A stretch of 64,000 nucleotides of DNA from Oscillospiraceae bacterium (GCA_015067185.1 SVMZ01000012.1:2928-66927), one strand, 5' to 3'; positions 2,552-64,000 are shown, numbered from the stretch's first letter. Made by a program: numbers and translations. The notes: a model not told the origin generated them from the sequence alone.

Positions 2552-2994
2552 TTCTCTGAAGCAAGCAGAACCATGAACACAAAAAAAGCGTCACGCTGCT
2601 CTTTGCAACATGACGCTTGTTATACGATTGAGATTTTTCCAAAACAACACGTTGTGCCAACAATCCTCATTTTTCGCACCAAGCTGCAAAACAGCCCGCA
2701 GGAAAGTTTAACCCAACATAAATTCCATCGAATCGCAATCAGATCAGAGTCTATATAGCAAAGATTACTTTTACTACTCTTATTGACCATTTCACAAGTT
2801 CATGCCCAAAGCACATTTGGTTATAAAGTAACCGACTCATAAAACTGAGCTTCTAACTCAATCAATAAAGCAACAGAAGTTGCCAACCGCAAAGCGGCAT
2901 TCGGCATTCGACCCGGCTGTCCGTATGGCCTTAGCCGATGATTTCATCGGCGGTCGTGCAATCCTGCTTTGGAAAACTCTTTCCAATTGAGATT
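2552..2994 (-). promoter_or_regulatory. long untranslated leader of potABC (candidate riboswitch/attenuator or separate sRNA)
   Basis: About 410 nt lie between a consensus promoter (3001-3029) and the terminator at 2581-2618. I found no credible ORF with an RBS. Internal hairpins include CCGAUGAAAUCAUCGG. Confidence 0.4.
2581..2618 (-). terminator. intrinsic terminator/attenuator about 55 nt upstream of the potA start
   Basis: The minus-strand RNA reads AAGCGUCA-17 nt-UGACGCUUUUUUUG, a GC-rich stem followed by a 7-U tract. No promoter-like sequence lies between it and potA. Confidence 0.55.
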
Positions 2995-48639: not shown

Positions 48640-51240
48640 TTATTTAAGACGGAGTGTTCCCAAAAGGGATATGATCACGGTCCAGCAAATCTGATAAATC
48701 AGAACAAAAACAGCGCTCATGCTGGAAATGCCGCCAATAAAGGAGAAAAACGTTACCAGCGCACAGCCAATCACCATACCTACCAGCTGCATCATAACCG
48801 CAGCAGAGACTTTGTTTTTCACAGAAGTGGCAGTATTGAGAACATAAGCTTCGGAAAGGAGGGTGCCGTCGGTAGCAGCTTTGGCGGGAAGCTGCTCCTT
48901 TTCATCACAGATAAGCTCAAAATCATCCTGATATTTGGAAGAGACGATATTGATTTTGTCTGCAGGATACTGGAAAAGATCCGAAAGCAGCTTGGCAGTG
49001 ATATTGGGGTCAGTGGAATTGATGGCAAGGGTGACACCGCGGCGTTTGAGCAGAGAGAATGTCTCTTTCATCTCAGCAGAAGGTTTGTAGCTGAGAATAA
49101 ACATGGCGGTAAGCTCACCGGAATTGGAAAGATAAATGACATTCTGCCCAAGACGGGTATATCGGTTTTCATATTCGAGATCGGGTGTTTCAATACCGTG
49201 ATGCTCCATCAGCATACGGTTGCCGATGAGAACACGCTTGGAATTTACCCAGGCAGAAAGACCCATACCGTCTTCATAGATAAGGTTGTCAAATTTTTTG
49301 AGCATGGCTGTGTTGCCTGAGATAACCTTATCGAAAATAAAGTTTAGAGTGTTTTTCACCTGACAAATCACACTGGCAGCATCCAGCAATGCCTCATCCA
49401 CGCGTCCGCGGGAGAAAGTTTTGATGGCGTGCAGCTCAATATCATCGGCTTTGAAAAGCTCTGTGGCATCCATAAGCACAACATTGGTCTCAGCCACTTC
49501 CTCTGCTGCAGCATAACCGGAAAGCATTGCGCCTTTGCCGAGCAGATCAGCACAGACAGAACCGATTGGCAAAGCGGCAGCCAGTGTTGAAGTGAAGGGG
49601 GCTGCAATGGCCATCATGGCTGCAAACACTGTGAATCCAAGAAAAACATCCTTGTTTAACAAGCCGACAATAACAGCCACCAACAGGGAGGCCGCAATTG
49701 CAATGGGTGCTGCTGTACGGTGAATATTGTCTGCAAAATCATCGTCATAGGAGATATCCAGGAAGTCGGAGAGATGGTGCACACGGGCGGCACCGACAAT
49801 TTTCCCGGTGGTATCCTTATAAATACCGGTCAAACGCTTACGAAGATCCGCATCCTCAACAAGATTGAGGGCATTCTTTTTACCCTGTGCTGATACATAG
49901 GCAAAGTTAGCGGCAATGCGCTTGAGCATAAAGAGTTTTCCCACGGTGTTCATTGCAAGAGCCAATATCGGCAGCCAGAAATACATGTTGGCTGCACTGA
50001 CAGTAATTCTTTCTGCAAGCACAATCATGGATACCGCATGCATAAGCGACGCTATCAAACTGACCGAAATTAGCGTATCGCTGTTGGCTTTTAGTTTGAA
50101 AAGCGAAAGCAAACCGCCGCCAACAGGAACATGACAAATCAAAACAGCAGCGCAGAGCACCAGAACATTGAGCACATAGAAAAGGGCATTTCCACCGTCG
50201 TTAAAAGCCACCGCTTCGGGAAGTGCAACTGTACCGGCTGCATTGAGAGAAAGTACGATCAAAACAACAAAAACCACTGCTGTAAAAATGAGTCGCATAA
50301 TCAGAGAAGATTTTTGCCGGCTAAAATCTTTGAGAATGCTTTCAATTTGATCCTGAGAGGTATATTCGGTGATATCCCCATTCTTTTCCGCTGCTCTCCG
50401 CAGGGATTCTTCATAGCCTTCCCTGGCGCGTACGGTGGAGGGTGTTTCAGAAACCGGAAGAACCGGCGGAACCGGATCCGCAGGACGTTCTGCAGCAGGT
50501 TCAGGCGTATGGACGGATTTTCGGATCTGGGTAAAGTCGGAATCTACCCCCGATTCACTGTTTTCCAGCGAAAAGCTGTTGACCTTATGAGAACGCTGAC
50601 GTTTCAGCTCTTCATAATTGGTGGCCAGTCTCTGCCCGTTCTCCTGTGTATGTGCGGAATAGACCTTTACATCCTCTTCCTTTGCGGAAGGAACCGTGAC
50701 CGGTATGGAGTCATCCTCCTCCAAATCCTCCGCCACACTGAACACACCCGGACGTGCTGCACGCTGATCGGCAGATTTCCTTAGTCTTTTTGCTTCTTTC
50801 GGCTCCAATTCCTTCGGGCGGAAAAAATCCTGAAGTGTATCGTCGATCTGTATGCGGCGGTTGGCCATAGGCTCATCGCGGTATTCATCCGTATAGGTCG
50901 GCACAGCCGCACGTGATTTTTGCGCCATTCTTGCCGATTCGGGAATGTATGAATCAACACGTTCCGGCTCGGGCTGTTTAACGCGTTCCTCAGTCGGCTT
51001 CCGCACAGAAACCTGCTCCTGCGCAGCAGCACTCCGGCTCTCTGCCTGCACCTCTTCCCTTTCCGCGGTCTCTGTCGGATGAGCTTCGCGTTTCGGCATA
51101 TATTCCTCATCAGATACTCGGGAAGCAGTATGAGACGGCTTCGGATATACCGGCATATCGTGGGGATCGCCGGCCTGCTTTGCGCTTTTTTTGCGTTTTA
51201 TTTCATTAAGTATATCATCTACATTGTATTTATTATCCAT
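48640..51240 (-). CDS. large membrane protein with a disordered N-terminal third and a degenerate P1B-type ATPase-like core (catalytic motifs absent)
   Basis: About 300 aa of charged low-complexity sequence, then multiple TM helices. A P/N-domain-like region aligns by eye to CopA-type pumps but has APF in place of CPC, LMDATE in place of DKTGT, NSTDPN in place of TGDN, and ATDGTLLSEA in place of GDGINDAPAL. ATG at 51240 after GGGGAG. Confidence 0.8.
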   Translation of the reverse strand: MDNKYNVDDILNEIKRKKSAKQAGDPHDMPVYPKPSHTASRVSDEEYMPKREAHPTETAEREEVQAESRSAAAQEQVSVRKPTEERVKQPEPERVDSYIPESARMAQKSRAAVPTYTDEYRDEPMANRRIQIDDTLQDFFRPKELEPKEAKRLRKSADQRAARPGVFSVAEDLEEDDSIPVTVPSAKEEDVKVYSAHTQENGQRLATNYEELKRQRSHKVNSFSLENSESGVDSDFTQIRKSVHTPEPAAERPADPVPPVLPVSETPSTVRAREGYEESLRRAAEKNGDITEYTSQDQIESILKDFSRQKSSLIMRLIFTAVVFVVLIVLSLNAAGTVALPEAVAFNDGGNALFYVLNVLVLCAAVLICHVPVGGGLLSLFKLKANSDTLISVSLIASLMHAVSMIVLAERITVSAANMYFWLPILALAMNTVGKLFMLKRIAANFAYVSAQGKKNALNLVEDADLRKRLTGIYKDTTGKIVGAARVHHLSDFLDISYDDDFADNIHRTAAPIAIAASLLVAVIVGLLNKDVFLGFTVFAAMMAIAAPFTSTLAAALPIGSVCADLLGKGAMLSGYAAAEEVAETNVVLMDATELFKADDIELHAIKTFSRGRVDEALLDAASVICQVKNTLNFIFDKVISGNTAMLKKFDNLIYEDGMGLSAWVNSKRVLIGNRMLMEHHGIETPDLEYENRYTRLGQNVIYLSNSGELTAMFILSYKPSAEMKETFSLLKRRGVTLAINSTDPNITAKLLSDLFQYPADKINIVSSKYQDDFELICDEKEQLPAKAATDGTLLSEAYVLNTATSVKNKVSAAVMMQLVGMVIGCALVTFFSFIGGISSMSAVFVLIYQICWTVIISLLGTLRLK

Positions 51241-51300
51241 GCTCAAATACTCCCCGTTTCTCGGAATGTTTATTTCAGATGGTTATTCATTGCTGTCGAT

Positions 51301-53557: not shown

Positions 53558-53615
53558 GCAAAAAGCAGGAACATCATCGCAACCCGAAGATAACGATGGT
53601 ATTCCTGCTTTTTGC
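53558..53615. terminator. long bidirectional terminator hairpin shared by deoB and rnpB
   Basis: GCAAAAAGCAGGAA...TTCCTGCTTTTTGC: a 14-bp outer stem with an inner CATCATCG/CGATGGT-type extension and U-tracts on both strands. Confidence 0.7.
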
Positions 53616-53958
53616 TGCGACCAGACAATAAGCCGAGTTCTGTAATTGACGACAATCTATCTATTCCATTCGTCGCCGAATGGATAAAGCCATACTTTCG
53701 GAAGACGCCGGGCAAGCGTATCCTTCCACTTGATGTTGCTCCGGATAGGGTTTACAGGGCCGCACAGTCTCCTGTGCGCCGGTGAGCTCTTACCTCGCCT
53801 TTCCACCCTTACCACACGGCGAACCGCATGGCGGTATATCTCTGTTGCACTTTCCCTGGGGTCACCCCCGGCTGCCGTTAGCAGTTATCCTGCCCTGCGG
53901 AGCTCGGACTTTCCTCGTACACGGTCTCCCGTGCCCGCTGCCGTCTCGTCTGCTCGCA
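53614..53958 (-). ncRNA. rnpB: RNase P RNA (bacterial, type A-like architecture)
   Basis: The minus strand contains GAGGAAAGUCCGAGCUCC (P4 5' strand), GGGAAAGUGCAACAGA, GGUAAGGGUGGAAAGGCGAGGUAAGAGCUCACC, GUAAACCCUAUCCGGAGCAA and ACAGAACUCGGCUUA (P4 3' strand). The P1 pairing is GCGAGCAGAC/GUCUGGUCGC. A promoter lies directly upstream and a terminator downstream. Confidence 0.95.
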
Positions 53959-53964
53959 AGAACA

Positions 53965-53993
53965 ATTCTATCACAGTTTTGCGCACAGGTCAA
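53965..53993 (-). promoter_or_regulatory. rnpB promoter (TTGACC-17-TAGAAT with a TG extension)
   Basis: The reverse complement reads TTGACC tgtgcgcaaaactgTGa TAGAAT. The predicted TSS coincides with the start of helix P1. Confidence 0.65.
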
Positions 53994-54182
53994 GCGGAAA
54001 AGGGAAATCGCATCGTTTGTCCGCCGGCTGTTTCTTTCCTCAATATCTCTTGTTTTTGCACAAAGACAGCCTTCTCCCATCCTTGCTGCAAGTCCCTAAA
54101 ATAAAAAATTTTTATTCATTTTTTATATCTATTTCAAATAGTTTCTAATTCCTGAATGTTGCATATCTTTTTGCGAATAATC

Positions 54183-54212
54183 ATTGACCCCGTCAAAAGG
54201 TTAGTGTTATTA
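54183..54212 (+). promoter_or_regulatory. putative promoter of the seven-gene paralog array (TTGACC-18-TATTAT, extended -10 TGt)
   Basis: -35 at 54183-54188, TG at 54204-54205 and -10 at 54207-54212. It is the only promoter-like element before the array and lies in an AT-rich spacer. Confidence 0.5.
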
Positions 54213-54248
54213 TTATAGTAACATTTTTTATTAAAAGGGGTATTTGTT

Positions 54249-55562
54249 ATGAATCAACATCTCCTTGTCGGCGTTGGCCGTGAAATTGTAACTCCACCCA
54301 TCGGTGGCCTGCTTATGGGATACTCTCCACCCCGCGCCTCCGAAAGTGTCAACGATGACATTCATATCACTGCTTTTGCCTTCGAATACAACGGTGTCCG
54401 TTCCCTCATTGCCTCCGCCGAACTCTGCTCTTTGCGCGGCATTCAGATCAAGGATATTCTGGAAGCTGTTTCTGAATCTTCCGGCATTCCTGTGGGACGC
54501 ATCATTCTCAGCACTGTTCATACCCATTCCGCACCATATACACTGGTCTCTCCTGATGAAAGACCCAACTATATCTATGATCAGTTTATCCCCTCTGCCC
54601 GTAAGGCTGCTCTCGACGCCGTAAACTCTCTTCGTCCCGCAGTTATGGGGGTCGGCACCACCCAAAGCGATGTTGGTGTCAACCGCCGTGTCCTGCAGGA
54701 GGACGGAACTATTACCCACGGTCAGGATCCCACCGGCATCTACGATCCCACCATGACCATCATCTCCTTCCGTGAACCGGACGGCACCGCCATCGGCAAC
54801 CTCATTCACTACGGTGCCCACAACACCGCCTCCGGCATCAACACCGAAATCACCCGCGACTGGTGCGGTGTTGCCATCGACCGTCTGGAAGAACTCTCCG
54901 GCGGTGTCACCGCCTTTTTCAACGGCGGCGGCGGAGACTGCGGCCCCCGTCTTCCCAACGGAAGAACTACCGGCACACTAAAAGAGGCTCTGGAGCTGGG
55001 TGGACGCGCTGCCTCCGATGCCGTCCGTGCTTGGCGTTCCATCACCGAATGGCGGGAAGTGGACATGCACGTCCTCACTGATAATATTACCCTGCCCCTC
55101 CGCCCCTTTCCCCCACTGGAAGAGATGGAAGCCAAGCTGGCAGCCATGGGCGATCCCTCCAAACTGACCGGTCTCCGTGTCTCTGCACACCGCAACCTGA
55201 TCCAACGCATTGAGTATATTCGCTCCGGCGCCATACCTCCCACCACCTTTGATATACTCACCCCGGCCATTGCTGTCGGTCCCGTTGTCTTTCTTCCCAT
55301 CCCCTTCGAACCCTTCTCCATCATTCCGCTGCGCATCAAACAGTACAGTCCCTATCCTTATACCGTTTCCATCGGTTATGCTAACGGCGGCTATAGCTAT
55401 CTGCCTTCCATGGATCAGATCTGCCGCGGCGGTTATGAGGTGTGGATGTTCACCTCCATGAATCTCGTCCCCTTTGGCGATGAGTCGGAGCAATATTTTG
55501 TAACCGGCGCCACCCGCATGATCCGCGAGTTGTACCAGAAAACCCACGGCGACAGCCTTTAA
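54249..55562 (+). CDS. neutral/alkaline ceramidase N-terminal-domain-like hydrolase, paralog 1 (most divergent)
   Basis: LLVGVGREIVTPPIGGLLMGYS, VHTHSAP, VGVNRR, IHYGAHNTA, GGGGDCGPRL, IPFEPFS, RGGYEVWMFTS. No signal peptide. Confidence 0.85.
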   Translation: MNQHLLVGVGREIVTPPIGGLLMGYSPPRASESVNDDIHITAFAFEYNGVRSLIASAELCSLRGIQIKDILEAVSESSGIPVGRIILSTVHTHSAPYTLVSPDERPNYIYDQFIPSARKAALDAVNSLRPAVMGVGTTQSDVGVNRRVLQEDGTITHGQDPTGIYDPTMTIISFREPDGTAIGNLIHYGAHNTASGINTEITRDWCGVAIDRLEELSGGVTAFFNGGGGDCGPRLPNGRTTGTLKEALELGGRAASDAVRAWRSITEWREVDMHVLTDNITLPLRPFPPLEEMEAKLAAMGDPSKLTGLRVSAHRNLIQRIEYIRSGAIPPTTFDILTPAIAVGPVVFLPIPFEPFSIIPLRIKQYSPYPYTVSIGYANGGYSYLPSMDQICRGGYEVWMFTSMNLVPFGDESEQYFVTGATRMIRELYQKTHGDSL

Positions 55563-55586
55563 TTTACAAATAAAGGAGAATCAACT

Positions 55587-56903
55587 ATGAACAGCAAACT
55601 TCTTGTTGGTGTTGGTCGTCAGGATATTACACCCGGCATTGGTGCCGTTCTGCAGGGTTATGCCCCCGGCAGGCCTGCAGAATCCATCCACGATCACCTC
55701 AACCTCACAGCCTATGCTTTTGAGTATGAATCTTTGCGCTCCATTGTAGCAGCTGCAGACCTTCTGCTGCTCAGCGAGCCCTTTGTATCCGAAATCCGCC
55801 AGGCCATGGCAGAGGCCTCCGGTATCCCCTTTGACAATATTATCATCTGCACCACCCACACTCACTCCGGTCCCGTTACCAGACGCTCCCCCGGTGAGTA
55901 CCCGGTGGACAATGATTACCTTTACAATCATCTTGTTCCCGCTGCTGCCAAAGCCGCCGCAGATGCTGCCGCCTCTCTTCGCCCCGCCCTTGTCGGAATC
56001 GGTACCACCCACAGCGATGTGGGCATCAACCGCCGGCAAATCAACGAGGATGGTTCCATCTCTCTCGGACAAAACCCCTACGGCAGCTATGACCCCATCA
56101 TGACCGTCATTTCCTTTCGCGAACCGGACGGCAAGCCCATTGGCAACATGATCCACTACGGCGCCCATAACACAGCTTCCGGCAAAAATCCGGAGATCAC
56201 CCGCGACTGGTGCGGCGTTATGATCGATCGTCTGGAAGAACTCTCCGGCGGTATCACCGCTTTCTTCAACGGCTGCGAGGGCGACTGCGGTCCCCGCCTG
56301 CCCAGCGGCAAAACCACCGGCAACCTGCAGCAGGCACTGGAATTGGGCGGTCAGGCTGCTACCGATGCTGTCCGCGCCTGGTGTTCCATTAAAGAGTGGC
56401 GCTCCGATTTTGATATGCGTGTAATCAGCGGCACCGTACAGATGCCCCTGAAAAAGCCGGCTTCTCTCCCCGAACTGGAAGCGGAACTGGCCACCTTTGA
56501 AGATCCTTCTGCCATCTCCGGACTCAAACTCACCCATTACAAGGTGGTGCAGGAGCGAATAGAAGCTGTCAAATCCGGTATGCAGTTCAAGGATTTCTCC
56601 GATATGCCCATTTCCGTGGTGTCGGTCGGTCCTGTTGCTTTCCTTCCCATCCCCTTCGAGACCTTCTCTGTCATCACACTGCGCCTGCGCAAATACAGCC
56701 CCTTTACCCATACCCTTTCCCTGAGTAACGGCAACGGCTCTATTGAATACTTCCCCTCGCAGGATCAGCTGATCCGCGGTGGCTATGAGGTATGGATGTT
56801 CACCTCCATGAAGCTGCAGCCCTATGCCGACAACTCCGAACAGTGTTTTGTCTCCGGCTGTACCGAGTTGCTCAGAAAACTGAAAAACAATAAACCTTTA
56901 TGA
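55587..56903 (+). CDS. neutral/alkaline ceramidase N-terminal-domain-like hydrolase, paralog 2
   Basis: The same motif set (THTHSGP, INRR, HYGAHNTA, GCEGDCGPRL, IPFETFS, RGGYEVWMFTS). AAGGAG RBS. Confidence 0.85.
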   Translation: MNSKLLVGVGRQDITPGIGAVLQGYAPGRPAESIHDHLNLTAYAFEYESLRSIVAAADLLLLSEPFVSEIRQAMAEASGIPFDNIIICTTHTHSGPVTRRSPGEYPVDNDYLYNHLVPAAAKAAADAAASLRPALVGIGTTHSDVGINRRQINEDGSISLGQNPYGSYDPIMTVISFREPDGKPIGNMIHYGAHNTASGKNPEITRDWCGVMIDRLEELSGGITAFFNGCEGDCGPRLPSGKTTGNLQQALELGGQAATDAVRAWCSIKEWRSDFDMRVISGTVQMPLKKPASLPELEAELATFEDPSAISGLKLTHYKVVQERIEAVKSGMQFKDFSDMPISVVSVGPVAFLPIPFETFSVITLRLRKYSPFTHTLSLSNGNGSIEYFPSQDQLIRGGYEVWMFTSMKLQPYADNSEQCFVSGCTELLRKLKNNKPL

Positions 56904-56925
56904 TATCAGGGGGGAAACACGCACT

Positions 56926-58230
56926 ATGACTTCATCACTTTCTGTCGGCATCGGCCGTCAGGATATTACACCGCCACTTGGATCCTGGCTGATGGGCTAT
57001 GCCCCTGCCCGCCGTGCGGAATCGGTGGGTGATCCTCTTCACATCACTGTTTTTGCCTTTGAATATGCCGGTGTACGCTCTCTGCTTTCCACTGCGGATG
57101 TCTGTCTGATCGGCAATCCGCTCTCCACAGAGATCCGCCGGGAGATGTCTGCCGCCTCCGGTGTCCCCTTTGATCACATCATTCTCTCTGCCACCCACAC
57201 CCATTCCGGTCCTCCCATGCGTGCCACCGCCGGCGAAGCCCCCGTGGATCCGGAATATATCAACCAACTTTTTATTCCTGCCGCCAAAAAGGCGGCTGCC
57301 GAAGCGGTTGCTGCCCTGCGTCCCGCTTTGGTGGGGGTAGGTGAAATCCACAGCGATGTGGGTGTCAATCGCCGCGGTATCGCTCTTAATGGCAGCATTA
57401 CCTTGGGACAGGATCCCTATGGCACCTATGATCCCATCATGACCGTTGTCTCTTTCCGTGAACCGGACGGCAAAGCCATCGGTAACCTCATCCACTATGG
57501 CGCCCACAACACCGCTTCCGGCAAAAATCCGGAGATCACCCGCGACTGGTGCGGTGTTGCCATCGACCGTCTGGAGGCAGAATCCGGCGGCATCACCGCC
57601 TTCTTCAACGGCTGCGAAGGCGACACCGGCCCCCGTCTTCCCAACGGGCAGACTACCGGCAACTATCAGATGGCACAGGAACTGGGCGGACGTGCCGCCA
57701 TCGATGCCGTCAATGCCTGGCGCTCCATCAAAGAGTGGCGTGCCGATCTTCCCATGAAGGTCACCACAGAGGATATTACTCTCCCCCTGAAACCTCTTCC
57801 CGAAGAAGAAACACTCATACAGGAAATTGAATCACTGGGCGATCCCGAAAAGCTGGTCGGCCTTCATTATTCGGGTTATGCCCTCCTGCTTGACCGTCTT
57901 GAACTGATACGCAGCGGCGGCGGTAAACAATCCGAACCTGTCAGCACCACCGTCATTTCAGTCGGTCCCGTTGCTTTTCTTGCTGTCCCCTTTGAAGTTT
58001 TCTCCCGTATCACCCTTCGCATCAGGCAATACAGCCCCTATCCCTATACGCTCTCCCTCTCCAACGGTAACGGCAATCTCTTCTACTTCCCCTCTCAGGA
58101 TCAGCTGATCCGCGGCGGCTATGAAGTATGGCTGTTTACCTCTTTTAAAACGCAGCCCTTCGCCGATGATTCTGAGCAGCATTACGTTGTTGGTGCTGTT
58201 GATTTACTGAATAACCTGAATAAACAATAA
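56926..58230 (+). CDS. neutral/alkaline ceramidase N-terminal-domain-like hydrolase, paralog 3
   Basis: The same motif set, except GCEGDTGPRL in place of GDCGPRL. Confidence 0.85.
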   Translation: MTSSLSVGIGRQDITPPLGSWLMGYAPARRAESVGDPLHITVFAFEYAGVRSLLSTADVCLIGNPLSTEIRREMSAASGVPFDHIILSATHTHSGPPMRATAGEAPVDPEYINQLFIPAAKKAAAEAVAALRPALVGVGEIHSDVGVNRRGIALNGSITLGQDPYGTYDPIMTVVSFREPDGKAIGNLIHYGAHNTASGKNPEITRDWCGVAIDRLEAESGGITAFFNGCEGDTGPRLPNGQTTGNYQMAQELGGRAAIDAVNAWRSIKEWRADLPMKVTTEDITLPLKPLPEEETLIQEIESLGDPEKLVGLHYSGYALLLDRLELIRSGGGKQSEPVSTTVISVGPVAFLAVPFEVFSRITLRIRQYSPYPYTLSLSNGNGNLFYFPSQDQLIRGGYEVWLFTSFKTQPFADDSEQHYVVGAVDLLNNLNKQ

Positions 58231-58247
58231 AGCAAAGGAGCTTTTTC

Positions 58248-59555
58248 ATGTCCTCTTCTCTTATGGTTGGTATTGCCCGTCAGGATATCACCCCTCCCAT
58301 TGGTGCATGGCTGATGGGTTACGCCCCCGGCAGACGCGCCGAATCGGTTGGCGATCACCTCAATCTCACCGTTTATGCCTTTGAATCTGACGGTATCCGC
58401 TCTCTTGTTGCCACTGCCGATGTCTGCCTTATGGCTAATCCTCTCTATATCACTGTCCGTGAAGTAATGGCAGAAGCTTCCGGTGTCCCCTTTGATCACA
58501 TCATCATCTGCACCACCCACACCCATTCCGGTCCTGCACTCCGGGGAACTCCCGGCGGTGTCCCTCAGGATACAGAGTATATCGACCGCATCTTTCTTCC
58601 TGCCGCCAAAAAGGCGGCCGCTGAAGCTGTTGCTGTTCTGCGTCCCGCTTTGGTCGGTATTGGCGAAATCCACAGCGACGTGGGTGTCAACCGCCGCGGC
58701 ATGAAGCTTGACGGTTCCATTGTACTCGGACAGGATCCTCATGGCACCTATGACCCCATCATGACTGTCGTCTCTTTCCGTGAACCGGATGGTAAGCCCA
58801 TCGGCAACCTGATCCACTACGGCGCTCATAACACCGCCTGCGGTAAAAATCCGGAGATTTCCCGCGACTGGTGCGGTGTTGCTATTGACCGTCTGGAGGC
58901 AGAATCCGGCGGCATCACCGCTTTCTTCAACGGCTGTGAAGGAGACTGCGGCCCCCGTCTCGCCAACGGTCAAACCACCGGCAATTATCAGCTTGCTCTG
59001 GAACTGGGCGGACATGCTGCTATCGATGCCGTCAACGCCTGGCGCTCCATCAAGGAGTGGCGTGCCGATCTTCCCATGAAGGTTATTGCCGAAGATATCG
59101 CCCTTCCCTTTAAACCGATGCCTTCTGAAGCAGATCTTATTAAGGAAATAGAAACCATGGGCAATCCCGAAAATCTGGTAGGGCTTCAGGTTCTCTCCTA
59201 CAAAGCACTGCTTGGCAGACTGGAACTGATTCGTTCCGGCCAAAAAATTGAAAGTGAAAAACTTTTCCATACCACGGTGGTTTCCATCGGTCCCCTTGCC
59301 TTCTTCCCCATCCCCTTTGAAATTTTCTCCCGCATTACCCTTCGCATCCGTGAGTTCAGCCCCTATCCTTACACCCTTTCCCTCAGCAATGCCAACAATT
59401 CCAATTTCTACTTTCCCTCGATAGATCAGATCATCCGCGGCGGCTATGAAGTCTGGGCATTCACCTCTTTCAATGCCCAACCCTTCGCAGATGATTCCGA
59501 ACAACATCTTGTGGAAGGTGCTGTTCGCCTGCTGAACACATTAAATCAAAAATAA
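58248..59555 (+). CDS. neutral/alkaline ceramidase N-terminal-domain-like hydrolase, paralog 4
   Basis: The same motif set. AAGGAG RBS. Confidence 0.85.
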   Translation: MSSSLMVGIARQDITPPIGAWLMGYAPGRRAESVGDHLNLTVYAFESDGIRSLVATADVCLMANPLYITVREVMAEASGVPFDHIIICTTHTHSGPALRGTPGGVPQDTEYIDRIFLPAAKKAAAEAVAVLRPALVGIGEIHSDVGVNRRGMKLDGSIVLGQDPHGTYDPIMTVVSFREPDGKPIGNLIHYGAHNTACGKNPEISRDWCGVAIDRLEAESGGITAFFNGCEGDCGPRLANGQTTGNYQLALELGGHAAIDAVNAWRSIKEWRADLPMKVIAEDIALPFKPMPSEADLIKEIETMGNPENLVGLQVLSYKALLGRLELIRSGQKIESEKLFHTTVVSIGPLAFFPIPFEIFSRITLRIREFSPYPYTLSLSNANNSNFYFPSIDQIIRGGYEVWAFTSFNAQPFADDSEQHLVEGAVRLLNTLNQK

Positions 59556-59602
59556 TTATCCAATTATCCATTATTTTAATTACATAATAAGGAGAAATGA
59601 TT

Positions 59603-60910
59603 ATGTCCAGTACTTTGCTTGTCGGCGTTGGCCGCACTGATATCACCCCTCCCATCGGCGCATGGCTCATGGGATATACCCCAGCAAGACGCGCTGAATC
59701 CATCGGTGATCACCTCAATTTCACCGCATATGCTTTTGAATCTGACGGTGTTCGCTCCATCGTTGCCACCGCCGATGTCTGCCTCATGCGTGATCCTCTC
59801 GCCTCAGAGGTTCGTCAAGCAATGGCCAAAGCCTCCGGTGTCCCCTTTGAAAACATTATCCTCTCCACCACCCATACCCATTCCGGCCCCATTCTTCACG
59901 ATAGCATCGGCGGTGTTACCCCCGATCCCGACTACATGGAAAACACCCTGTTTGCCGGCGCTGCCAAAGCCTGCGTGGATGCCGTTGCAACACTTCGTCC
60001 CGCTCTCATGGGCATTGGAGAGATCCACAGTGATGTGGGCATCAACCGCCGTCAGATGCTGCAGGACGGCACGATCATCCTTGGACAGGATCCCCACGGC
60101 ACCTACGATCCCATCATGACCGTTGTCTCCTTCCGTGAGCCGGACGGCAAACCCATCGGCAATATCATTCACTATGGTGCCCACAACACCGGCTCCGGCA
60201 AAAACCCGGAGATTACCCGTGACTGGTGCGGCGTTGCCATCGACCGTCTGGAAGCAGAATCCGGCGGTATTACCTCCTTTTTCAACGGCTGTGAGGGTGA
60301 CTGCGGCCCCCGTCTCGCCAACGGCAAGACCACCGGTAACTATCAGCTGGCTTTGGAACTGGGCGGACGTGCCGCTATCGATGCCGTCAATGCCTGGCGC
60401 TCTATCAAAGAATGGCGTGCCGATCTTCCCATGAAAGTCATCACCGGCACCATCGAGATGCCTCTGAAAAAACTGCCTGCCCCGGAAACCCTTGAAAAGG
60501 AAATTGAAGCTCTGGGTGATCCCTCTCAGCTTCAGGGTCTGAACCTGACCTCTTACAACAGACTGAACGAGAGACTGGAATACATCCGCACCACAGAAGA
60601 GATCCCCACTACAGAGACCATCCAGACCACCGCTATCTCTGTCGGTCCTCTCGCCTTCTTCCCCATTCCCTTTGAAATTTTCTCCCGCATTACCCTGCGC
60701 ATCCGTGAATTCAGCCCCTATCCCTATACCCTCTCCCTCTCCAACGGCAACGGATCCCTTTTCTATTTCCCCTCCATGGATCAGCTCTGCCGCGGCGGTT
60801 ACGAAGTCTGGCTGTTCACCTCCTTTAAAATTCATCCCTTTGCCGATACTGCTGAACAGTACTATGTAGACGGTGCTGTTAAGATTCTTCGTGACCTCAA
60901 TGACAAATAA
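59603..60910 (+). CDS. neutral/alkaline ceramidase N-terminal-domain-like hydrolase, paralog 5
   Basis: The same motif set. The ATG at 59603 lies 7 nt after AAGGAG; the ORF-track start at 59597 is too close to the RBS. Confidence 0.85.
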   Translation: MSSTLLVGVGRTDITPPIGAWLMGYTPARRAESIGDHLNFTAYAFESDGVRSIVATADVCLMRDPLASEVRQAMAKASGVPFENIILSTTHTHSGPILHDSIGGVTPDPDYMENTLFAGAAKACVDAVATLRPALMGIGEIHSDVGINRRQMLQDGTIILGQDPHGTYDPIMTVVSFREPDGKPIGNIIHYGAHNTGSGKNPEITRDWCGVAIDRLEAESGGITSFFNGCEGDCGPRLANGKTTGNYQLALELGGRAAIDAVNAWRSIKEWRADLPMKVITGTIEMPLKKLPAPETLEKEIEALGDPSQLQGLNLTSYNRLNERLEYIRTTEEIPTTETIQTTAISVGPLAFFPIPFEIFSRITLRIREFSPYPYTLSLSNGNGSLFYFPSMDQLCRGGYEVWLFTSFKIHPFADTAEQYYVDGAVKILRDLNDK

Positions 60911-60936
60911 TCTATCAACTTTGGAGGAATTTTATT

Positions 60937-62241
60937 ATGACAAACACGCTTCTCGTCGGTATCGGACGCCATGACATTACCCCACCCCTTGGCGCCTGGC
61001 TGACAGGCTATGCCCCTGCAAGACAGGCGGAATCGGTTGGCGACAATCTGAACCTCACTGCTTTTGCCTTTGGTTACAACGATCTCCGCTCTCTCCTTGT
61101 CACTGCCGATGTCTGCCTCATCAAGGCTCCCGACGGTGATCGCGTACGCCGCGCTATGTCGGCCGCTTCCGGCATTCCCTTTGAGCATATCACTCTTTCC
61201 ACCACCCACACCCATTCCGGTCCCGCTACCTTCCGTACCGGCGGCGGTGCTGATATGGATATGGAATACTTTGATAACATCTTTATCCCTGCTGCTGAAA
61301 AAGCTGCTGCCGAAGCCGTTGCTGCTTTGCGTCCTGCTGAAGTTGGCGTAGGTGAAATTCACAGTGACGTCGGCATCAACCGCCGTCAGATGCTGCAGAA
61401 TGGCACCATCATCCTCGGTCAGGATCCCCACGGCACCTACGATCCCATCATGACTGTTGTCTCCTTCCGCGAGCCGGACGGCAAACCCATCGGCAACCTG
61501 ATTCATTACGGCGCTCACAACACCGGTTCCGGAAAGAACCCGGAAATTACCCGCGACTGGTGCGGCGTTGCCATTGACCGTCTGGAAGCCGCATCCGGCG
61601 GTATCACCGCATTTTTCAACGGCTGTGAGGGTGACTGCGGTCCCCGCCTTGCCAATGGTCAAACCGTCGGCAATTATCAGCTGGCTCTGGAACTGGGCGG
61701 CCGTGCCGCCATTGATGCGGTCAATGCCTGGCGTTCTATCAAGGAATGGCGTTCCGACTGCGATATGCGCGTTATCTGCCGTACCGTCAAACTCCCCTAC
61801 AAGATTATGCCCACCAAGGAAGCCCTGCAGGCTGAGATCGACGCTATGGGCGATCCCGACAAGCTGATTGGTCTTGCTGTCCTTCAGTATGAAAGCCTGA
61901 TCCAGAGGATGGAAATGATCTGCTCCGGCGAGCCCATTGATGACAACCTCTGCCTTGAGCTTCCCGTCATCTCGGTCGGTCCCGTGGCCTTCTTCCCCAT
62001 CCCCTTTGAGATTTTCTCCCGCATCACCCTGCGCATCCGGGAGTTCAGTCCTTATCCCTACACCCTCTCTCTGAGCAATACCAACGGTGCTTATCAGTAC
62101 TTCCCCTCCATGGATCAGATCTGCCGCGGCGGTTATGAGGTCTGGGTATTCACCTCCCTTACCGCTCACCCCCTTGCCGACGATTCCGAGCAGCATCTGG
62201 TTGACCGTGCCGTTGAAATTCTGAAAGAACTGAAAGCCTGA
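60937..62241 (+). CDS. neutral/alkaline ceramidase N-terminal-domain-like hydrolase, paralog 6
   Basis: The same motif set. GGAGG RBS. Confidence 0.85.
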   Translation: MTNTLLVGIGRHDITPPLGAWLTGYAPARQAESVGDNLNLTAFAFGYNDLRSLLVTADVCLIKAPDGDRVRRAMSAASGIPFEHITLSTTHTHSGPATFRTGGGADMDMEYFDNIFIPAAEKAAAEAVAALRPAEVGVGEIHSDVGINRRQMLQNGTIILGQDPHGTYDPIMTVVSFREPDGKPIGNLIHYGAHNTGSGKNPEITRDWCGVAIDRLEAASGGITAFFNGCEGDCGPRLANGQTVGNYQLALELGGRAAIDAVNAWRSIKEWRSDCDMRVICRTVKLPYKIMPTKEALQAEIDAMGDPDKLIGLAVLQYESLIQRMEMICSGEPIDDNLCLELPVISVGPVAFFPIPFEIFSRITLRIREFSPYPYTLSLSNTNGAYQYFPSMDQICRGGYEVWVFTSLTAHPLADDSEQHLVDRAVEILKELKA

Positions 62242-62273
62242 ACCCGATGTCTTTCGATATAGAGGAAAACAAT

Positions 62274-63575
62274 ATGAAAAATAAGCTTTTAGTCGGCGTT
62301 GGCCGCCATGATATTACTCCTCCCATCGGTGCCTGGCTGACAGGATATGCTCCCGCCAGAAGGGCGGAATCGGTCGGCGACAACCTGAACATTACTGCGT
62401 TTGCCTTTGAATACAACGGTCTGCGCTCTATGGTTGTTACCGCAGATGTCTGTCTGATTCGTGCAAACTACGCGGAACAGGTGCGTAAACTTATGGGTAC
62501 CGCAGCCCATATTCCCTTTGAACATATTACCCTTTCCGCCACACATACCCATTCCGGCCCTGCCACCTTCCGTACCGGCGGCGGCTCTGAGATGGATATG
62601 GAGTATTTCAACAACATTTTCATTCCTGCCGCTGAGAAAGCTGCAGCCGATGCTGCAGCCTCTCTCCGTCCCGCACAGTTGGGCGTAGGGGAGATTCACA
62701 GCGACGTGGGTGTCAATCGCCGCGGTATGAAGCTTGACGGATCTATTGTACTCGGACAGGATCCTCACGGCACCTACGATCCCATTATGACCGTTATCTC
62801 CTTCCGCGAACCGGACGGCAAACCCATCGGCAACATCATTCACTACGGTGCCCATAACACCGCTTCCGGCAAAAACACCGAGATCACCCGTGATTGGTGC
62901 GGCGTTGCCATCGACCGTCTGGAGGCAGAATCCGGCGGCATCACCGCCTTCTTTAACGGCTGCGAGGGTGACTGCGGTCCCCGTCTTCCCAATGGACAGA
63001 CTACCGGAAACTATAAAATGGCACTGGAACTGGGCGGACGCGCTGCCATCGATGCCGTCAACGCCTGGCGCTCCATCAAGGAATGGCGCGACTGTGATAT
63101 GCGCGTTATCTGCCACACTGTCAAGCTTCCCTATAAACCGCTCCCCACTAAGGAAGCCCTGCAGGCTGAAATTGATGCCATGGGTGATCCCTCTCAGCTG
63201 GTTGGTCTCAAAGTGACCCAGTATGAGGCTCTCATCCAGAGAATGGAGCTACTCTGCTCCGGTGAACCCATTTCCGATGGACTCCCCATGGACCTCCCCG
63301 TCATTTCTGTCGGTCCCGTGGCTTTCTTCCCCATTCCTTTCGAGATTTTCTCCCGCATCACCCTGCGGATCAGACAGTTCAGTCCCTATCCTTACACTCT
63401 TTCCCTGAGCAACACCAACGGTGCCTACCGCTACTTCCCCTCTATGGATCAGATCTGCCGCGGCGGCTATGAGGTCTGGGTCTTCACCTCTTTTGCTGCA
63501 CAGCCGTTTGCCGATGATTCCGAGCAGTATCTTGTGGAAGGTGCCGTCAATATTCTGAATGAGCTTCATTCCTGA
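62274..63575 (+). CDS. neutral/alkaline ceramidase N-terminal-domain-like hydrolase, paralog 7
   Basis: The same motif set. The ATG at 62274 (MKNKLLVGVG) aligns with the other copies and follows AGAGGA. Confidence 0.85.
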   Translation: MKNKLLVGVGRHDITPPIGAWLTGYAPARRAESVGDNLNITAFAFEYNGLRSMVVTADVCLIRANYAEQVRKLMGTAAHIPFEHITLSATHTHSGPATFRTGGGSEMDMEYFNNIFIPAAEKAAADAAASLRPAQLGVGEIHSDVGVNRRGMKLDGSIVLGQDPHGTYDPIMTVISFREPDGKPIGNIIHYGAHNTASGKNTEITRDWCGVAIDRLEAESGGITAFFNGCEGDCGPRLPNGQTTGNYKMALELGGRAAIDAVNAWRSIKEWRDCDMRVICHTVKLPYKPLPTKEALQAEIDAMGDPSQLVGLKVTQYEALIQRMELLCSGEPISDGLPMDLPVISVGPVAFFPIPFEIFSRITLRIRQFSPYPYTLSLSNTNGAYRYFPSMDQICRGGYEVWVFTSFAAQPFADDSEQYLVEGAVNILNELHS

Positions 63576-63619: not shown

Positions 63620-64000
63620 ATGTACAATTATGATGTTATTGTTGCCGGCGGCGGCACCGCAGGTGTTACTGCTGCCATTGCTGCCGCAAGAAACGGAGCC
63701 AAAACCCTCATCATTGAACAATACGGTCATTTAGGCGGAACCGCCGTTACCGGTCTTCCCTTTCTCGGGGTTTACGACGGCTGCGACAAACGTGTCAATG
63801 CCGGTCTTGTAAAAGAAATTACCGAGAGAATGAAAACAGAAAACGGTTCCCTTGACGGTGTTTTCGGCGCCACCTGGAATGACGGACGCTACCGTTTTTC
63901 TATCACTCCCTACGATGAAGAAATCTATAAATATGTCGTTCAGGAAATGGCACTGGAAGCAGGCTGTGAAATTCTCTTCCACTCCTTCGTCATCGGTGCC
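63620..64000 (+). CDS. FAD-dependent oxidoreductase (N-terminal part; continues beyond the window)
   Basis: MYNYDVIVAGGGTAGVTAAIAAARNGAKTLIIEQYGHLGGTA is a Rossmann GxGxxG dinucleotide-binding motif. A GGAGA RBS precedes it, 44 nt after paralog 7 with no terminator in between. Confidence 0.8.
   Translation, partial: MYNYDVIVAGGGTAGVTAAIAAARNGAKTLIIEQYGHLGGTAVTGLPFLGVYDGCDKRVNAGLVKEITERMKTENGSLDGVFGATWNDGRYRFSITPYDEEIYKYVVQEMALEAGCEILFHSFVIGA

Follow-up and report, generated by a model that had tools for sequence, protein, structure and literature searches.

The array and its putative operon

The window analysed here, a stretch of 64,000 nucleotides from an Oscillospiraceae bacterium, contains seven plus-strand open reading frames in tandem, each encoding a protein of 433–438 amino acids (Table 1); the host is an uncultured gut/rumen Clostridia bacterium. 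All seven were found where the original prediction, made from the sequence alone, had placed them, and their products align end to end as it proposed, with pairwise identities of 54–82%. Alternative ATG codons lie upstream of copies 5 and 7 (at 59597 and 62247), but Shine-Dalgarno spacing favours the starts at 59603 and 62274; gene callers on other contigs give 435 and 433 amino acids for these two copies, the 433-residue product of copy 7 being called identically on four independent contigs. The spacers between copies are 17–47 nt long. A Shine-Dalgarno sequence, expected in each of them, is clear in five (AAGGAG, GGAGG or GAGGA); between copies 2 and 3 there is no more than a run of G.

Table 1. 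Features of the array and the gene that follows it, numbered from the first nucleotide of the window
Feature	Position	Strand	Remarks
Promoter-like element	54184..54213	+	TTGACC-18 nt-TATTAT, extended TG; 10/12 consensus matches, best score in the region
Copy 1	54249..55562	+	437 aa; most divergent copy, older subfamily; PF04734 24.6 bits
Copy 2	55587..56903	+	438 aa; PF04734 44 bits; between-strain pN/pS 0.04
Copy 3	56926..58230	+	434 aa; copy 3-7 clade; PF04734 44.1 bits; between-strain pN/pS 0.04
Copy 4	58248..59555	+	435 aa; copy 3-7 clade; PF04734 33.7 bits; between-strain pN/pS 0.15
Copy 5	59603..60910	+	435 aa; copy used for modelling; PF04734 50.4 bits
Copy 6	60937..62241	+	434 aa; copy 3-7 clade, nearest to copy 7; PF04734 45.9 bits
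Copy 7	62274..63575	+	433 aa; adjoins FAD gene; PF04734 53.6 bits
FAD-dependent oxidoreductase, 5' part (126 codons)	63621..64000	+	442 aa in full; extends past the window

An eighth gene, preceded by AGGAG, starts 45 nt after copy 7. It encodes an FAD-dependent oxidoreductase (Pfam profile PF12831, E 3.7e-103) and is present whole in two other contigs, L006 (2382-3710) and L091 (11347-12675). The model of its product shows a two-domain flavoprotein fold of generic type (TM about 0.5 to any solved structure), which would suit amine oxidation, C=C reduction or another redox reaction equally well. The pairing of a ceramidase-like gene with an FAD gene recurs in loci L012 and L093, whose FAD proteins are respectively 71% and 79% identical to that of the window. 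We note that a 65% identical homologue of the FAD protein lies beside a TctABC carboxylate transporter and a GntR regulator without a ceramidase-like gene, an arrangement that counts against the function preferred below.

The promoter-like element, so called purely from its match to the consensus, sits 36 nt 5' of the copy 1 ATG, and strain L091 and contig L001 have exactly the same sequence from 54184 to that ATG. Other promoter-like matches in the region occur at chance frequency (11 seen, 7.7±3.3 expected), as do terminator-like matches (10 seen, 9.4±2.4 expected). No terminator was found in the spacers of the array, all plus-strand terminator-like matches there falling within coding sequence; those at 54900, 61598 and 62934 are the homologous codons for SGG(V/I)TAFFNG in copies 1, 6 and 7. 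A strong 16-bp terminator hairpin lies 3' of the FAD gene (L091 12692-12729) and is followed by a convergent gene. The common strand, the short spacers, the one upstream promoter-like site and the hairpin after gene 8 suggest a single putative operon, which, given the position of the FAD gene, would comprise eight genes over ~10.8 kb. The original prediction of a seven-gene operon of ~9.3 kb placed its seven genes correctly but ended the gene string too early.

The longest exact run common to any two copies is at most 50 nt. Copies 1-6 are found at 99.96% identity on a JGI contig (L001), contigs L002-L009 span the junctions of copies 4-5-6 and 6-7-FAD, and an ENA contig of 174.8 kb from a different sample (L091) is colinear at 98.4% identity and has the same seven genes. 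The seven-copy array is therefore not an assembly artefact, and the predicted copy number is backed by gene order in independent metagenome contigs and in strain L091.

Fold and active site

Six of the seven copies pass the PF04734 gathering cut-off of 32.1 bits (33.7-53.6 bits), although the matches reach no further than about positions 2-258 of the 509 in the profile; copy 1 falls below it and keeps every family-invariant catalytic residue. Among PDB entries the profile matches just two, 2zws and 4wgk. In Foldseek searches of the PDB, the AlphaFold2 model of copy 5 (pLDDT 92.7, pTM 0.92) aligns over its full length to the neutral ceramidase structures 2zxc, 2zws and 4wgk (E 2.4e-27 to 5.3e-26, TMq 0.70-0.74), and nothing besides neutral ceramidases scored above TM 0.2. 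An alignment of 27 diverse family members has 64 invariant columns, among them copy 5 H91/H93, R149, H194, E358, Y388 and Y400; the alignment of the C-terminal segment to ceramidases is not significant alone and agrees with the fold match. The homology to the neutral ceramidase catalytic domain recognised in the original prediction is thus borne out by profile and fold, and most of its motif series (THTHSGP, NR(R), HYGAHNT, IPFE and two C-terminal tyrosines) aligns to ceramidase catalytic residues. Its inclusion of GD(C/V)(G/S)P as a ceramidase motif, on the other hand, masks a true difference, as the serine position of GDxSPN (human Ser354) is an invariant glycine (GDCGPR) in 27/27 aligned members, and details of the active site may therefore differ from those of ceramidase.

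The Pfam profile search gave no match to the C-terminal Ig-like domain (PF17048) at E ≤ 1 in any copy, and the best score against the NCBIfam neutral ceramidase equivalog NF041649 is 19.3 bits (cut-off 1200), two copies having no match to it at all. A simple hydropathy test found no signal peptide or hydrophobic segment in the N-terminal region (maximum 15-mer hydropathy ≤ 1.07), and in alignments to the crystallised ceramidases, residue 5-6 of the copies is already paired with residue 5-6 of the mature enzyme. The proteins are thus most likely cytoplasmic, and the leaderless character first ascribed to them stands. Lacking the signal peptide, the Ig-like domain, the serine and all but about 19 of the 1200 bits, the copies have the neutral ceramidase catalytic-domain fold but are not canonical ceramidases.

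Divergence of the copies and their wider family

Each copy is intact and under purifying selection, with dN/dS among copies of 0.11-0.34 and between-strain pN/pS of 0.04-0.15 across all seven (0.04 in copy 1), in keeping with the earlier view that selection rather than decay has shaped them. That view had left diversity and dosage as alternatives, of which dosage is unlikely given the identities among copies and their saturated synonymous sites (dS 0.9-1.9). Copy 1 is 54-59% identical to the others and forms a separate clade in trees; copies 3 and 4 are 75% identical, and copies 6 and 7 are 82% identical with a dN/dS of 0.11. Copy 2 groups with the FAD-linked genes of L093 and L012, to which it has 71% and 65% identity, respectively; it, and not the FAD-adjacent copy 7, is orthologous to the lone ceramidase-like gene found before the FAD gene in other species. 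Copy 5 has an 84% identical, single-copy orthologue in another species (L090), and orthologues from other species nest within the copy 3-7 clade. By these relationships the seven are old, anciently diverged paralogues, and the array is not one homogeneous expansion, copies 1 and 2 being members of older subfamilies. Divergence peaks at residues 61-70, 101-110, 281-345 and 381-390, whereas residues 140-270 are 85-92% identical among copies. Segment 101-110 directly follows the HxH motif and segment 381-390 directly precedes the zinc-ligand tyrosine, an adjacency in the primary sequence that would place variable segments near the catalytic pocket.

With 39-84% identity from one end to the other, the copies are unexceptional full-length members of a short (about 430 aa) family consisting of the ceramidase N domain only. 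It comprises 2,695 clusters (50% identity, E ≤ 1e-30), of which the top matches span profile positions 1-434, and 918 word-indexed homologues at E ≤ 1e-5, nearly all of the 120 listed being about 425-440 aa long. Its members, about 430 aa, occur in Oscillospiraceae, Acutalibacteraceae, Lentisphaerae, Victivallales, Kiritimatiellae and Planctomycetes and carry the database name [quoted passage not shown], so the short form is far from the obscure type implied at the outset but a very large, already annotated family. A literature search found no published function for it or for a seven-copy array, in agreement with the original statement, which named no characterised member of the short form and no description of such an array. 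Within ±10 kb at 80 other loci, one copy is present in 71/80, two in 7/80 and three or four in the rest, and none of the 80 has seven; tandem multiplication itself recurs elsewhere, with up to four copies per locus.

A DegT aminotransferase gene (PF01041, E 2.9e-71) is found near 41/80 of the species loci and in 34 of these 41 lies directly downstream (≤300 nt, mostly 3-17 nt). Most other loci are DegT-coupled and not FAD-coupled; no DegT gene is present in the 64-kb window. The DegT-coupled loci belong to a subfamily further removed from the window copies, with which it shares 39-44% identity. Other recurrent neighbours at the 80 loci are AraC regulators, IolE-like TIM barrels, Gfo/Idh/MocA dehydrogenases, sugar ABC and GPH transporters, GH78, GH3 and SGNH esterase. 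The array itself lies amid housekeeping genes, and neither a transporter nor a glycosidase gene adjoins it, so any inference of a sugar substrate is carried over from relatives.

Proposed function, alternatives and known systems

The best explanation, to which we give a probability of about 0.5, is that the locus encodes seven paralogous N-deacylases of N-acylated amino sugars or related amines together with an FAD enzyme in an eight-gene putative operon. Because the zinc ligands (two His, Glu and Tyr) and the catalytic His, Arg and Tyr are all kept, each copy most likely hydrolyses an N-acyl amide bond, and it would do so by the ceramidase mechanism with a zinc-activated water. The usual position of the family among sugar-breakdown genes makes N-acyl amines other than ceramide the probable targets; to judge by its conserved neighbourhood, the most likely ones are N-acylated amino sugars, glycosides or related small amines taken up by the cell. 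As the copies differ mainly in loops beside the catalytic motifs, each probably takes its own substrate in a division of labour, and the FAD enzyme would then process the freed amine or the leftover scaffold; in most other lineages its position is filled by the translationally coupled DegT-type PLP sugar aminotransferase. The array is an extreme example of a large family that is usually found among sugar-breakdown genes.

The sugar-gene neighbourhood of distant relatives might not hold for the window subfamilies, DegT coupling being limited to subfamilies that share only about 40% identity with the copies in the window. It is conceivable, if rather doubtful, that the proteins are amidohydrolases acting on nitrogen compounds other than sugars, for instance acetylated polyamines, N-acyl amino acids or peptides, or nucleobases or nucleosides with an N-acyl group. 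Upstream of the array lies a phosphopentomutase gene and downstream of it a convergent gene for an inosine-uridine nucleoside hydrolase, a xanthine/uracil permease gene adjoins the close relative in L013 and a beta-lactamase-family hydrolase gene that in L015, and the TctABC and GntR neighbours of the FAD homologue point the same way. Neither flanking gene recurs beside family members at the 80 other loci, however, the flanks are either convergent or have an RNase P RNA gene between them and the array, and other close relatives (L014, L039, L041 and L050) have sugar-type neighbours. That the copies are true ceramidases or glycosphingolipid amidases is improbable. Ceramides would then be imported or scavenged from gut/rumen Bacteroidota, protozoa or plants, seven copies would suit different chain lengths or head groups, and the FAD enzyme or DegT aminotransferase would oxidise or deaminate the released sphingoid base. 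Neutral ceramidases are indeed the only relatives of known function by structure and sequence, with fully conserved catalytic residues, and amine-acting partners and neighbouring glycosidases would suit glycosphingolipid breakdown as well; but the proteins are cytoplasmic in all likelihood, with no membrane or lipid-handling features, the missing Ig-like domain, the equivalog score, the glycine at Ser354 and the low identity to ceramidases (see below) all argue against it, and the nearby transporters are of sugar type (SBP_bac_1, MFS_2/GPH), not lipid type.

It is more improbable still that the multiplicity reflects dosage or assembly, with seven proteins of the same activity or an obligate hetero-oligomer. 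The near identity among copies of the catalytic residues and the 130-residue core would suit such a role, as would a tight co-linear layout expected to yield roughly equal expression, but the overall divergence, the saturated dS and the long retention across species splits are unlike a dosage amplification, and a single copy per locus suffices in most species. Solved neutral ceramidase entries, to our knowledge, give no hint of hetero-oligomers, which also counts against this role.

The deacylase function preferred here has parallels in NagA, LpxC and LmbE/PIG-L, metal-dependent N-acetyl-sugar deacetylases of sugar catabolic or remodelling pathways in which a metal-activated water hydrolyses the amide of an N-acyl amino sugar. 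Their folds are unrelated to that of the copies, and Pfam, NCBIfam and Foldseek searches found no sequence or structural similarity between them, so the likeness is offered as a functional hypothesis only.

Pseudomonas aeruginosa CerN (2ZWS, 2ZXC) has the same catalytic-domain fold as the copies (E 2.4e-27, TMq 0.70-0.72); the TM normalised to the target is only ~0.50 because of the extra length of CerN, which includes its Ig-like domain. CerN H97/H99, R160, H204, E411, Y448 and Y460 align to invariant residues of the family, and the two tyrosines are spaced 12 residues apart in both. CerN, however, is secreted, is about 646 aa long and has an Ig-like domain at its C-terminus, whereas the copies end at ~435 aa without one; sequence identity to ceramidases is only 18-19% (19% to CerN), the serine of the CerN motif GNLSPN is replaced by glycine in GDCGPR, and the CerN substrate is ceramide, that of the copies being inferred only.

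Human ASAH2 (4WGK) also has the fold of the copies (E 3.5e-26, TMq 0.73-0.74). This ectoenzyme is anchored in the membrane and has disulfides, N-glycans and an Ig-like domain; in it an additional 30-residue subdomain makes a deep hydrophobic pocket and Ser354 positions the catalytic Arg257 (PMC6952831); the copies differ in their probable cytoplasmic location and in lacking both the Ig-like domain and Ser354. ASAH2 H194/H196, R257, H303 and E540 align to residues of the copies, and each of its critical residues His196, Arg257, Tyr579 and Tyr591 (PMC6952831) has a conserved counterpart in them.

Organization and divergence of the array

The array contains seven + strand genes whose 433–438-aa products align end to end without large indels (mean column identity 76%), and all seven open reading frames lie exactly where the original prediction placed them. 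Amino acid identity ranges from 54 to 82% over all pairs and is highest between copies 6 and 7 (82%); apart from that pair copies 3–7 are mutually 69–75% alike, copy 2 is 61–64% identical to copies 3–7, and copy 1 is 54–59% identical to every other copy. The longest exact run common to any two copies is not above 50 nt, so the copies are resolvable by short-read assemblers, and the count of seven is upheld by independent contigs and a second strain. JGI contig L001 carries copies 1–6 at 99.96% identity, eight more contigs from other samples link copies 4-5-6 and 6-7-next gene, and L091, a 174.8-kb ENA contig from the second strain, carries these seven genes too and is colinear with the window across 11.7 kb (98.4% identity). 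This agreement, with the shortness of the shared runs, excludes an assembly artefact or collapsed repeat. We note that the array genes stand slightly apart in base composition (GC 0.550, GC3 0.60; 33 other long window ORFs, GC 0.497±0.025, GC3 0.54±0.05), a difference for which their amino-acid content or a foreign origin may be responsible.

The predicted 17–47 nt spacers are present, but a Shine-Dalgarno sequence (AAGGAG, GGAGG or GAGGA, suitably spaced from the ATG) is carried by most rather than all of them. The single promoter-like element expected upstream lies 36 nt 5' of copy 1 and is the region's highest-scoring sigma-70-like match (TTGACC-18-TATTAT, extended TG); it is unchanged in the second strain, and operator-like repeats 5' of the array amount only to AT-rich chance matches. 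Internal terminators, which the prediction had denied, are ruled out: terminator-like matches are about as common as chance predicts (10, versus 9.4±2.4 in shuffled sequence), coincide with homologous coding positions and never fall in a spacer. Three such hairpins share one homologous position, SGG(V/I)TAFFNG, in copies 1, 6 and 7, and are protein-level conservation mimicking a regulatory motif.

The operon was predicted to have only these seven genes, and an eighth + strand gene was missed, which begins 45 nt past copy 7 and exits the window. It is whole on contigs L006 and L091, and its 442-aa product belongs to the FAD-dependent oxidoreductases (PF12831, E 3.7e-103); on L091 a hairpin with a 16-bp stem and A-rich and T-rich flanks lies 3' of it. 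The eighth gene and this hairpin make it likely that eight genes, ~10.8 kb in all, form one putative transcription unit. Between the array and a phosphopentomutase gene lies the gene for RNase P RNA, which has a promoter-like site of its own.

Features of the window and of the region beyond its end (window positions unless contig L091 is named)
Feature	Position	Strand	Remarks
RF02440 match (SpF59 sRNA / ldcC RNA motif)	2901-2956	-	70 bits; gathering score 37
868-aa ORF	48640-51246	-	By eye: long low-complexity charged N-terminal half, membrane P-type-ATPase-like C-terminal half
RNase P RNA class A, bacterial	53614-53956	-	RF00010, 273 bits; directly 5' of array
Listed ORFs	53730-54104	+	Spurious translations of RNase P RNA gene
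Promoter-like site of RNase P RNA gene	53993-53965		
Copies 1-7	54249-63575	+	
Terminator-like hairpin, copy 1	54900-54914		
Terminator-like hairpin, copy 6	61598-61610		
Terminator-like hairpin, copy 7	62934-62948		
FAD gene	starts 63621	+	
Inosine-uridine nucleoside hydrolase	L091 12780-13697	-	Convergent; PF01156 + Sde182_NH-like domain; beyond window end
AraC-type regulator	L091 13884-14627	+	After nucleoside hydrolase; beyond window end

Synonymous sites are saturated between copies (dS 0.9–1.9; dN/dS 0.11–0.34), which rules out recent amplification or gene conversion. Every copy is under strong recent constraint between the two strains (pN/pS 0.04–0.15 per copy, 0.06 when 140 synonymous and 27 nonsynonymous changes are pooled), and all seven are intact as claimed, with lengths and stops kept in both. 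In neighbour-joining trees without bootstrap, whose groupings are indicative only, copies 3–7 form one clade with single-copy orthologues of other species nested inside it (L090, 84% identical to copy 5, and L010, 75–76%), copy 2 clusters with the single ceramidase-like genes of loci L093 and L012, and copy 1 represents a third, older clade; these clades suggest that the array, rather than arising in a recent burst, unites at least three subfamilies and has been maintained for a long time. Separate tandem duplications appear in other lineages in the same indicative trees (L050 b/c/d, L041 a/b, L039 a/b). The copies diverge mainly at residues 61–70, 101–110, 281–345 and 381–390 and in the C-terminal tail, two of the divergent segments adjoining zinc ligands in the linear sequence, and residues 140–270 are 85–92% identical.

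Fold and active site

The predicted relationship to the ceramidase family is borne out by Pfam, in which PF04734 is the sole meaningful match, above the gathering score in six of the seven copies, and by structure. The only PDB entries returned by a profile search with the copies were two neutral ceramidases, 2zws from Pseudomonas and 4wgk from human, with E values of 2.9e-13 and 1e-11, respectively, for deeper profiles. The AlphaFold2 model of copy 5 (pLDDT 92.7, pTM 0.92) matches three neutral-ceramidase entries in a Foldseek search of the PDB (E 2.4e-27 to 5.3e-26, query-length TM 0.70–0.74), all other matches being noise (TM <0.2); the target-length TM is only ~0.50 because the query is without the C-terminal Ig-like domain. 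No closer structure was found in the PDB as of April 2026, nor was an NCBIfam model for the short family, the ~430-aa proteins with the ceramidase catalytic domain only to which the copies belong.

The PF04734 alignment is confined to the model's first half, and PMC4443539 ranks such half-domain matches as Pfam's commonest "unbounded partial". The stand-alone N-terminal sub-domain proposed for them in that paper is excluded here by the whole-protein fold match and the C-terminal Glu/Tyr/Tyr ligands, and judging from the model the half-length match is a limit of HMM sensitivity, the domain not being truncated.

Residue correspondences were counted along profile alignments to the ceramidase structures. 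The THTHSGP motif corresponds to Pseudomonas H97/H99 and human H194/H196, NR to R160 and R257, HYGAHNT to H204 and H303, and IPFE to E411 and E540, respectively, while YFPS and GGYE correspond to Pseudomonas Y448 and Y460 and lie outside the human alignment. These His, Arg, Glu and Tyr residues are invariant in 27 short-family members, down to 46% identity.

For the FAD protein, modelling (pLDDT 92.8) gives a generic two-domain flavoprotein fold whose best TM to solved structures is ~0.5; at that level its matches spread over reductases, monooxygenases, halogenases and sarcosine/glycine oxidases and do not distinguish the chemistry.

Genomic context of the short family

An exhaustive short-family profile search of 50%-identity clusters gave 21,951 clusters at E ≤ 1e-3, 12,261 at E ≤ 1e-10 and 2,695 at E ≤ 1e-30, the weaker tiers of which will contain canonical long ceramidases. 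Top matches are mostly full-length (~430 aa), with shorter fragments and a few multi-domain proteins. Five giant multi-domain proteins of 905–2098 aa (P0215, P0229, P0224, P0222 and P0258) carry the short ceramidase-like domain, some in up to three matched stretches, so that fused or extracellular forms of the family may exist.

Neighbourhoods were surveyed at the best 80 loci, taking one genome per species (GTDB) and calling neighbour ORFs with a simple in-house script. Nearly all of these loci belong to uncultured Oscillospiraceae, Acutalibacteraceae and other Clostridia from gut, rumen or digesters, and a minority to Lentisphaerae, Victivallales, Kiritimatiellae and Planctomycetes. One copy is present within ±10 kb at 71 loci, two at 7, three at 1 and four at 1. 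A DegT/DnrJ/EryC1 PLP sugar aminotransferase gene occurs at 41 of the 80, at 34 of them immediately downstream on the same strand with gaps of mostly 3–17 nt, and AraC regulators at about 18–20; other neighbours encode IolE-like TIM barrels, Gfo/Idh/MocA dehydrogenases, sugar ABC binding proteins, GPH-type transporters, GH78 rhamnosidase, arabinose-isomerase-like proteins, GH3 and SGNH esterase. Coupling to DegT is a feature of the more distant members (39–44% identity); in closer relatives the neighbourhood is more varied and includes a xanthine/uracil permease and a beta-lactamase-family protein. No DegT gene was found anywhere in the 64-kb window. An FAD gene also lies directly 3' of the ceramidase-like gene at L012 and L093 (proteins 71 and 79% identical, respectively). 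A 65% homologue of the FAD partner (L094–L096) closes a tctB-tctA-tctC transporter string beside a GntR regulator, where there is no ceramidase-like gene; this setting hints at carboxylate-bearing substrates for this PF12831 clade.

Possible function and relation to neutral ceramidases

The best-supported reading of these sequences is that the array encodes seven paralogous cytoplasmic zinc amidohydrolases which, with the flavoenzyme, would act on imported N-acylated amines. The neighbourhoods seen across the family suggest amino sugars or glycosides as substrates; the liberated amine would be processed by the PLP aminotransferase or flavoenzyme encoded directly downstream. More broadly, and with a probability of only about 0.3, the short family may be an unrecognised class of cytoplasmic N-deacylases opening an amide to free amine to carbonyl catabolism of N-acylated amino sugars and similar amines in gut anaerobes, in which deamination would be by DegT aminotransferase (most lineages) or PF12831 flavoenzyme (this lineage), interchangeably, and seven specificities gathered in one operon would give this species a broad-spectrum deacylase set.

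A rival reading, genuine (glyco)sphingolipid hydrolysis, would suit the neutral-ceramidase fold; signal peptide and anchor are absent from the copies, in line with the cytoplasmic location originally proposed. The substrates might instead be non-sugar amides, including nucleoside-related ones, a thought prompted by the array's own flanking genes; the nucleoside hydrolase and phosphopentomutase do not recur across the 80 loci and are ruled out as conserved partners. Finally, the seven copies might serve dosage or a hetero-oligomer.

If the N-deacylase proposal is true, thousands of "ceramidase N-terminal domain-containing protein" genes in gut and rumen genomes would be mislabelled as to substrate, and would belong to an uncharacterised step in degrading N-acylated glycans or other amines. 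The operon is a natural panel of seven diverged active sites on one scaffold in one organism, suited to mapping the substrate determinants of the ceramidase fold, and the well-known "partial" PF04734 matches are seen, through the modelled fold, to be complete catalytic domains beyond HMM reach. The analysis also provides an initial functional lead on the PF12831 flavoproteins, which are near-absent from the literature: no functional study was found in open-access full text, and the IsmB preprint concerns an unrelated Fe-S flavoenzyme.

Open-access full text likewise yielded no characterised short-form member and no description of such an array, and to that extent the claimed novelty stands. 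The short form is not the obscure family it was taken for, being abundant and annotated in databases already, with tandem copies elsewhere. Compared with the canonical enzymes, the copies lack the Ig-like domain, are 18–19% identical, score at most 19 of 1200 bits against the NCBIfam neutral-ceramidase equivalog and, like the rest of the short family, have an invariant Gly (GDCGPR) at human Ser354; on several defining points they thus depart from true members of the ceramidase family. The two active-site tyrosines are 12 residues apart in the short family, as in the Pseudomonas enzyme. Judging from the conserved site, the copies probably share the ceramidase mechanism. Since the family is abundant, annotated and elsewhere tandem, the array is a remarkable extreme, useful as a starting point, rather than a new kind of system.
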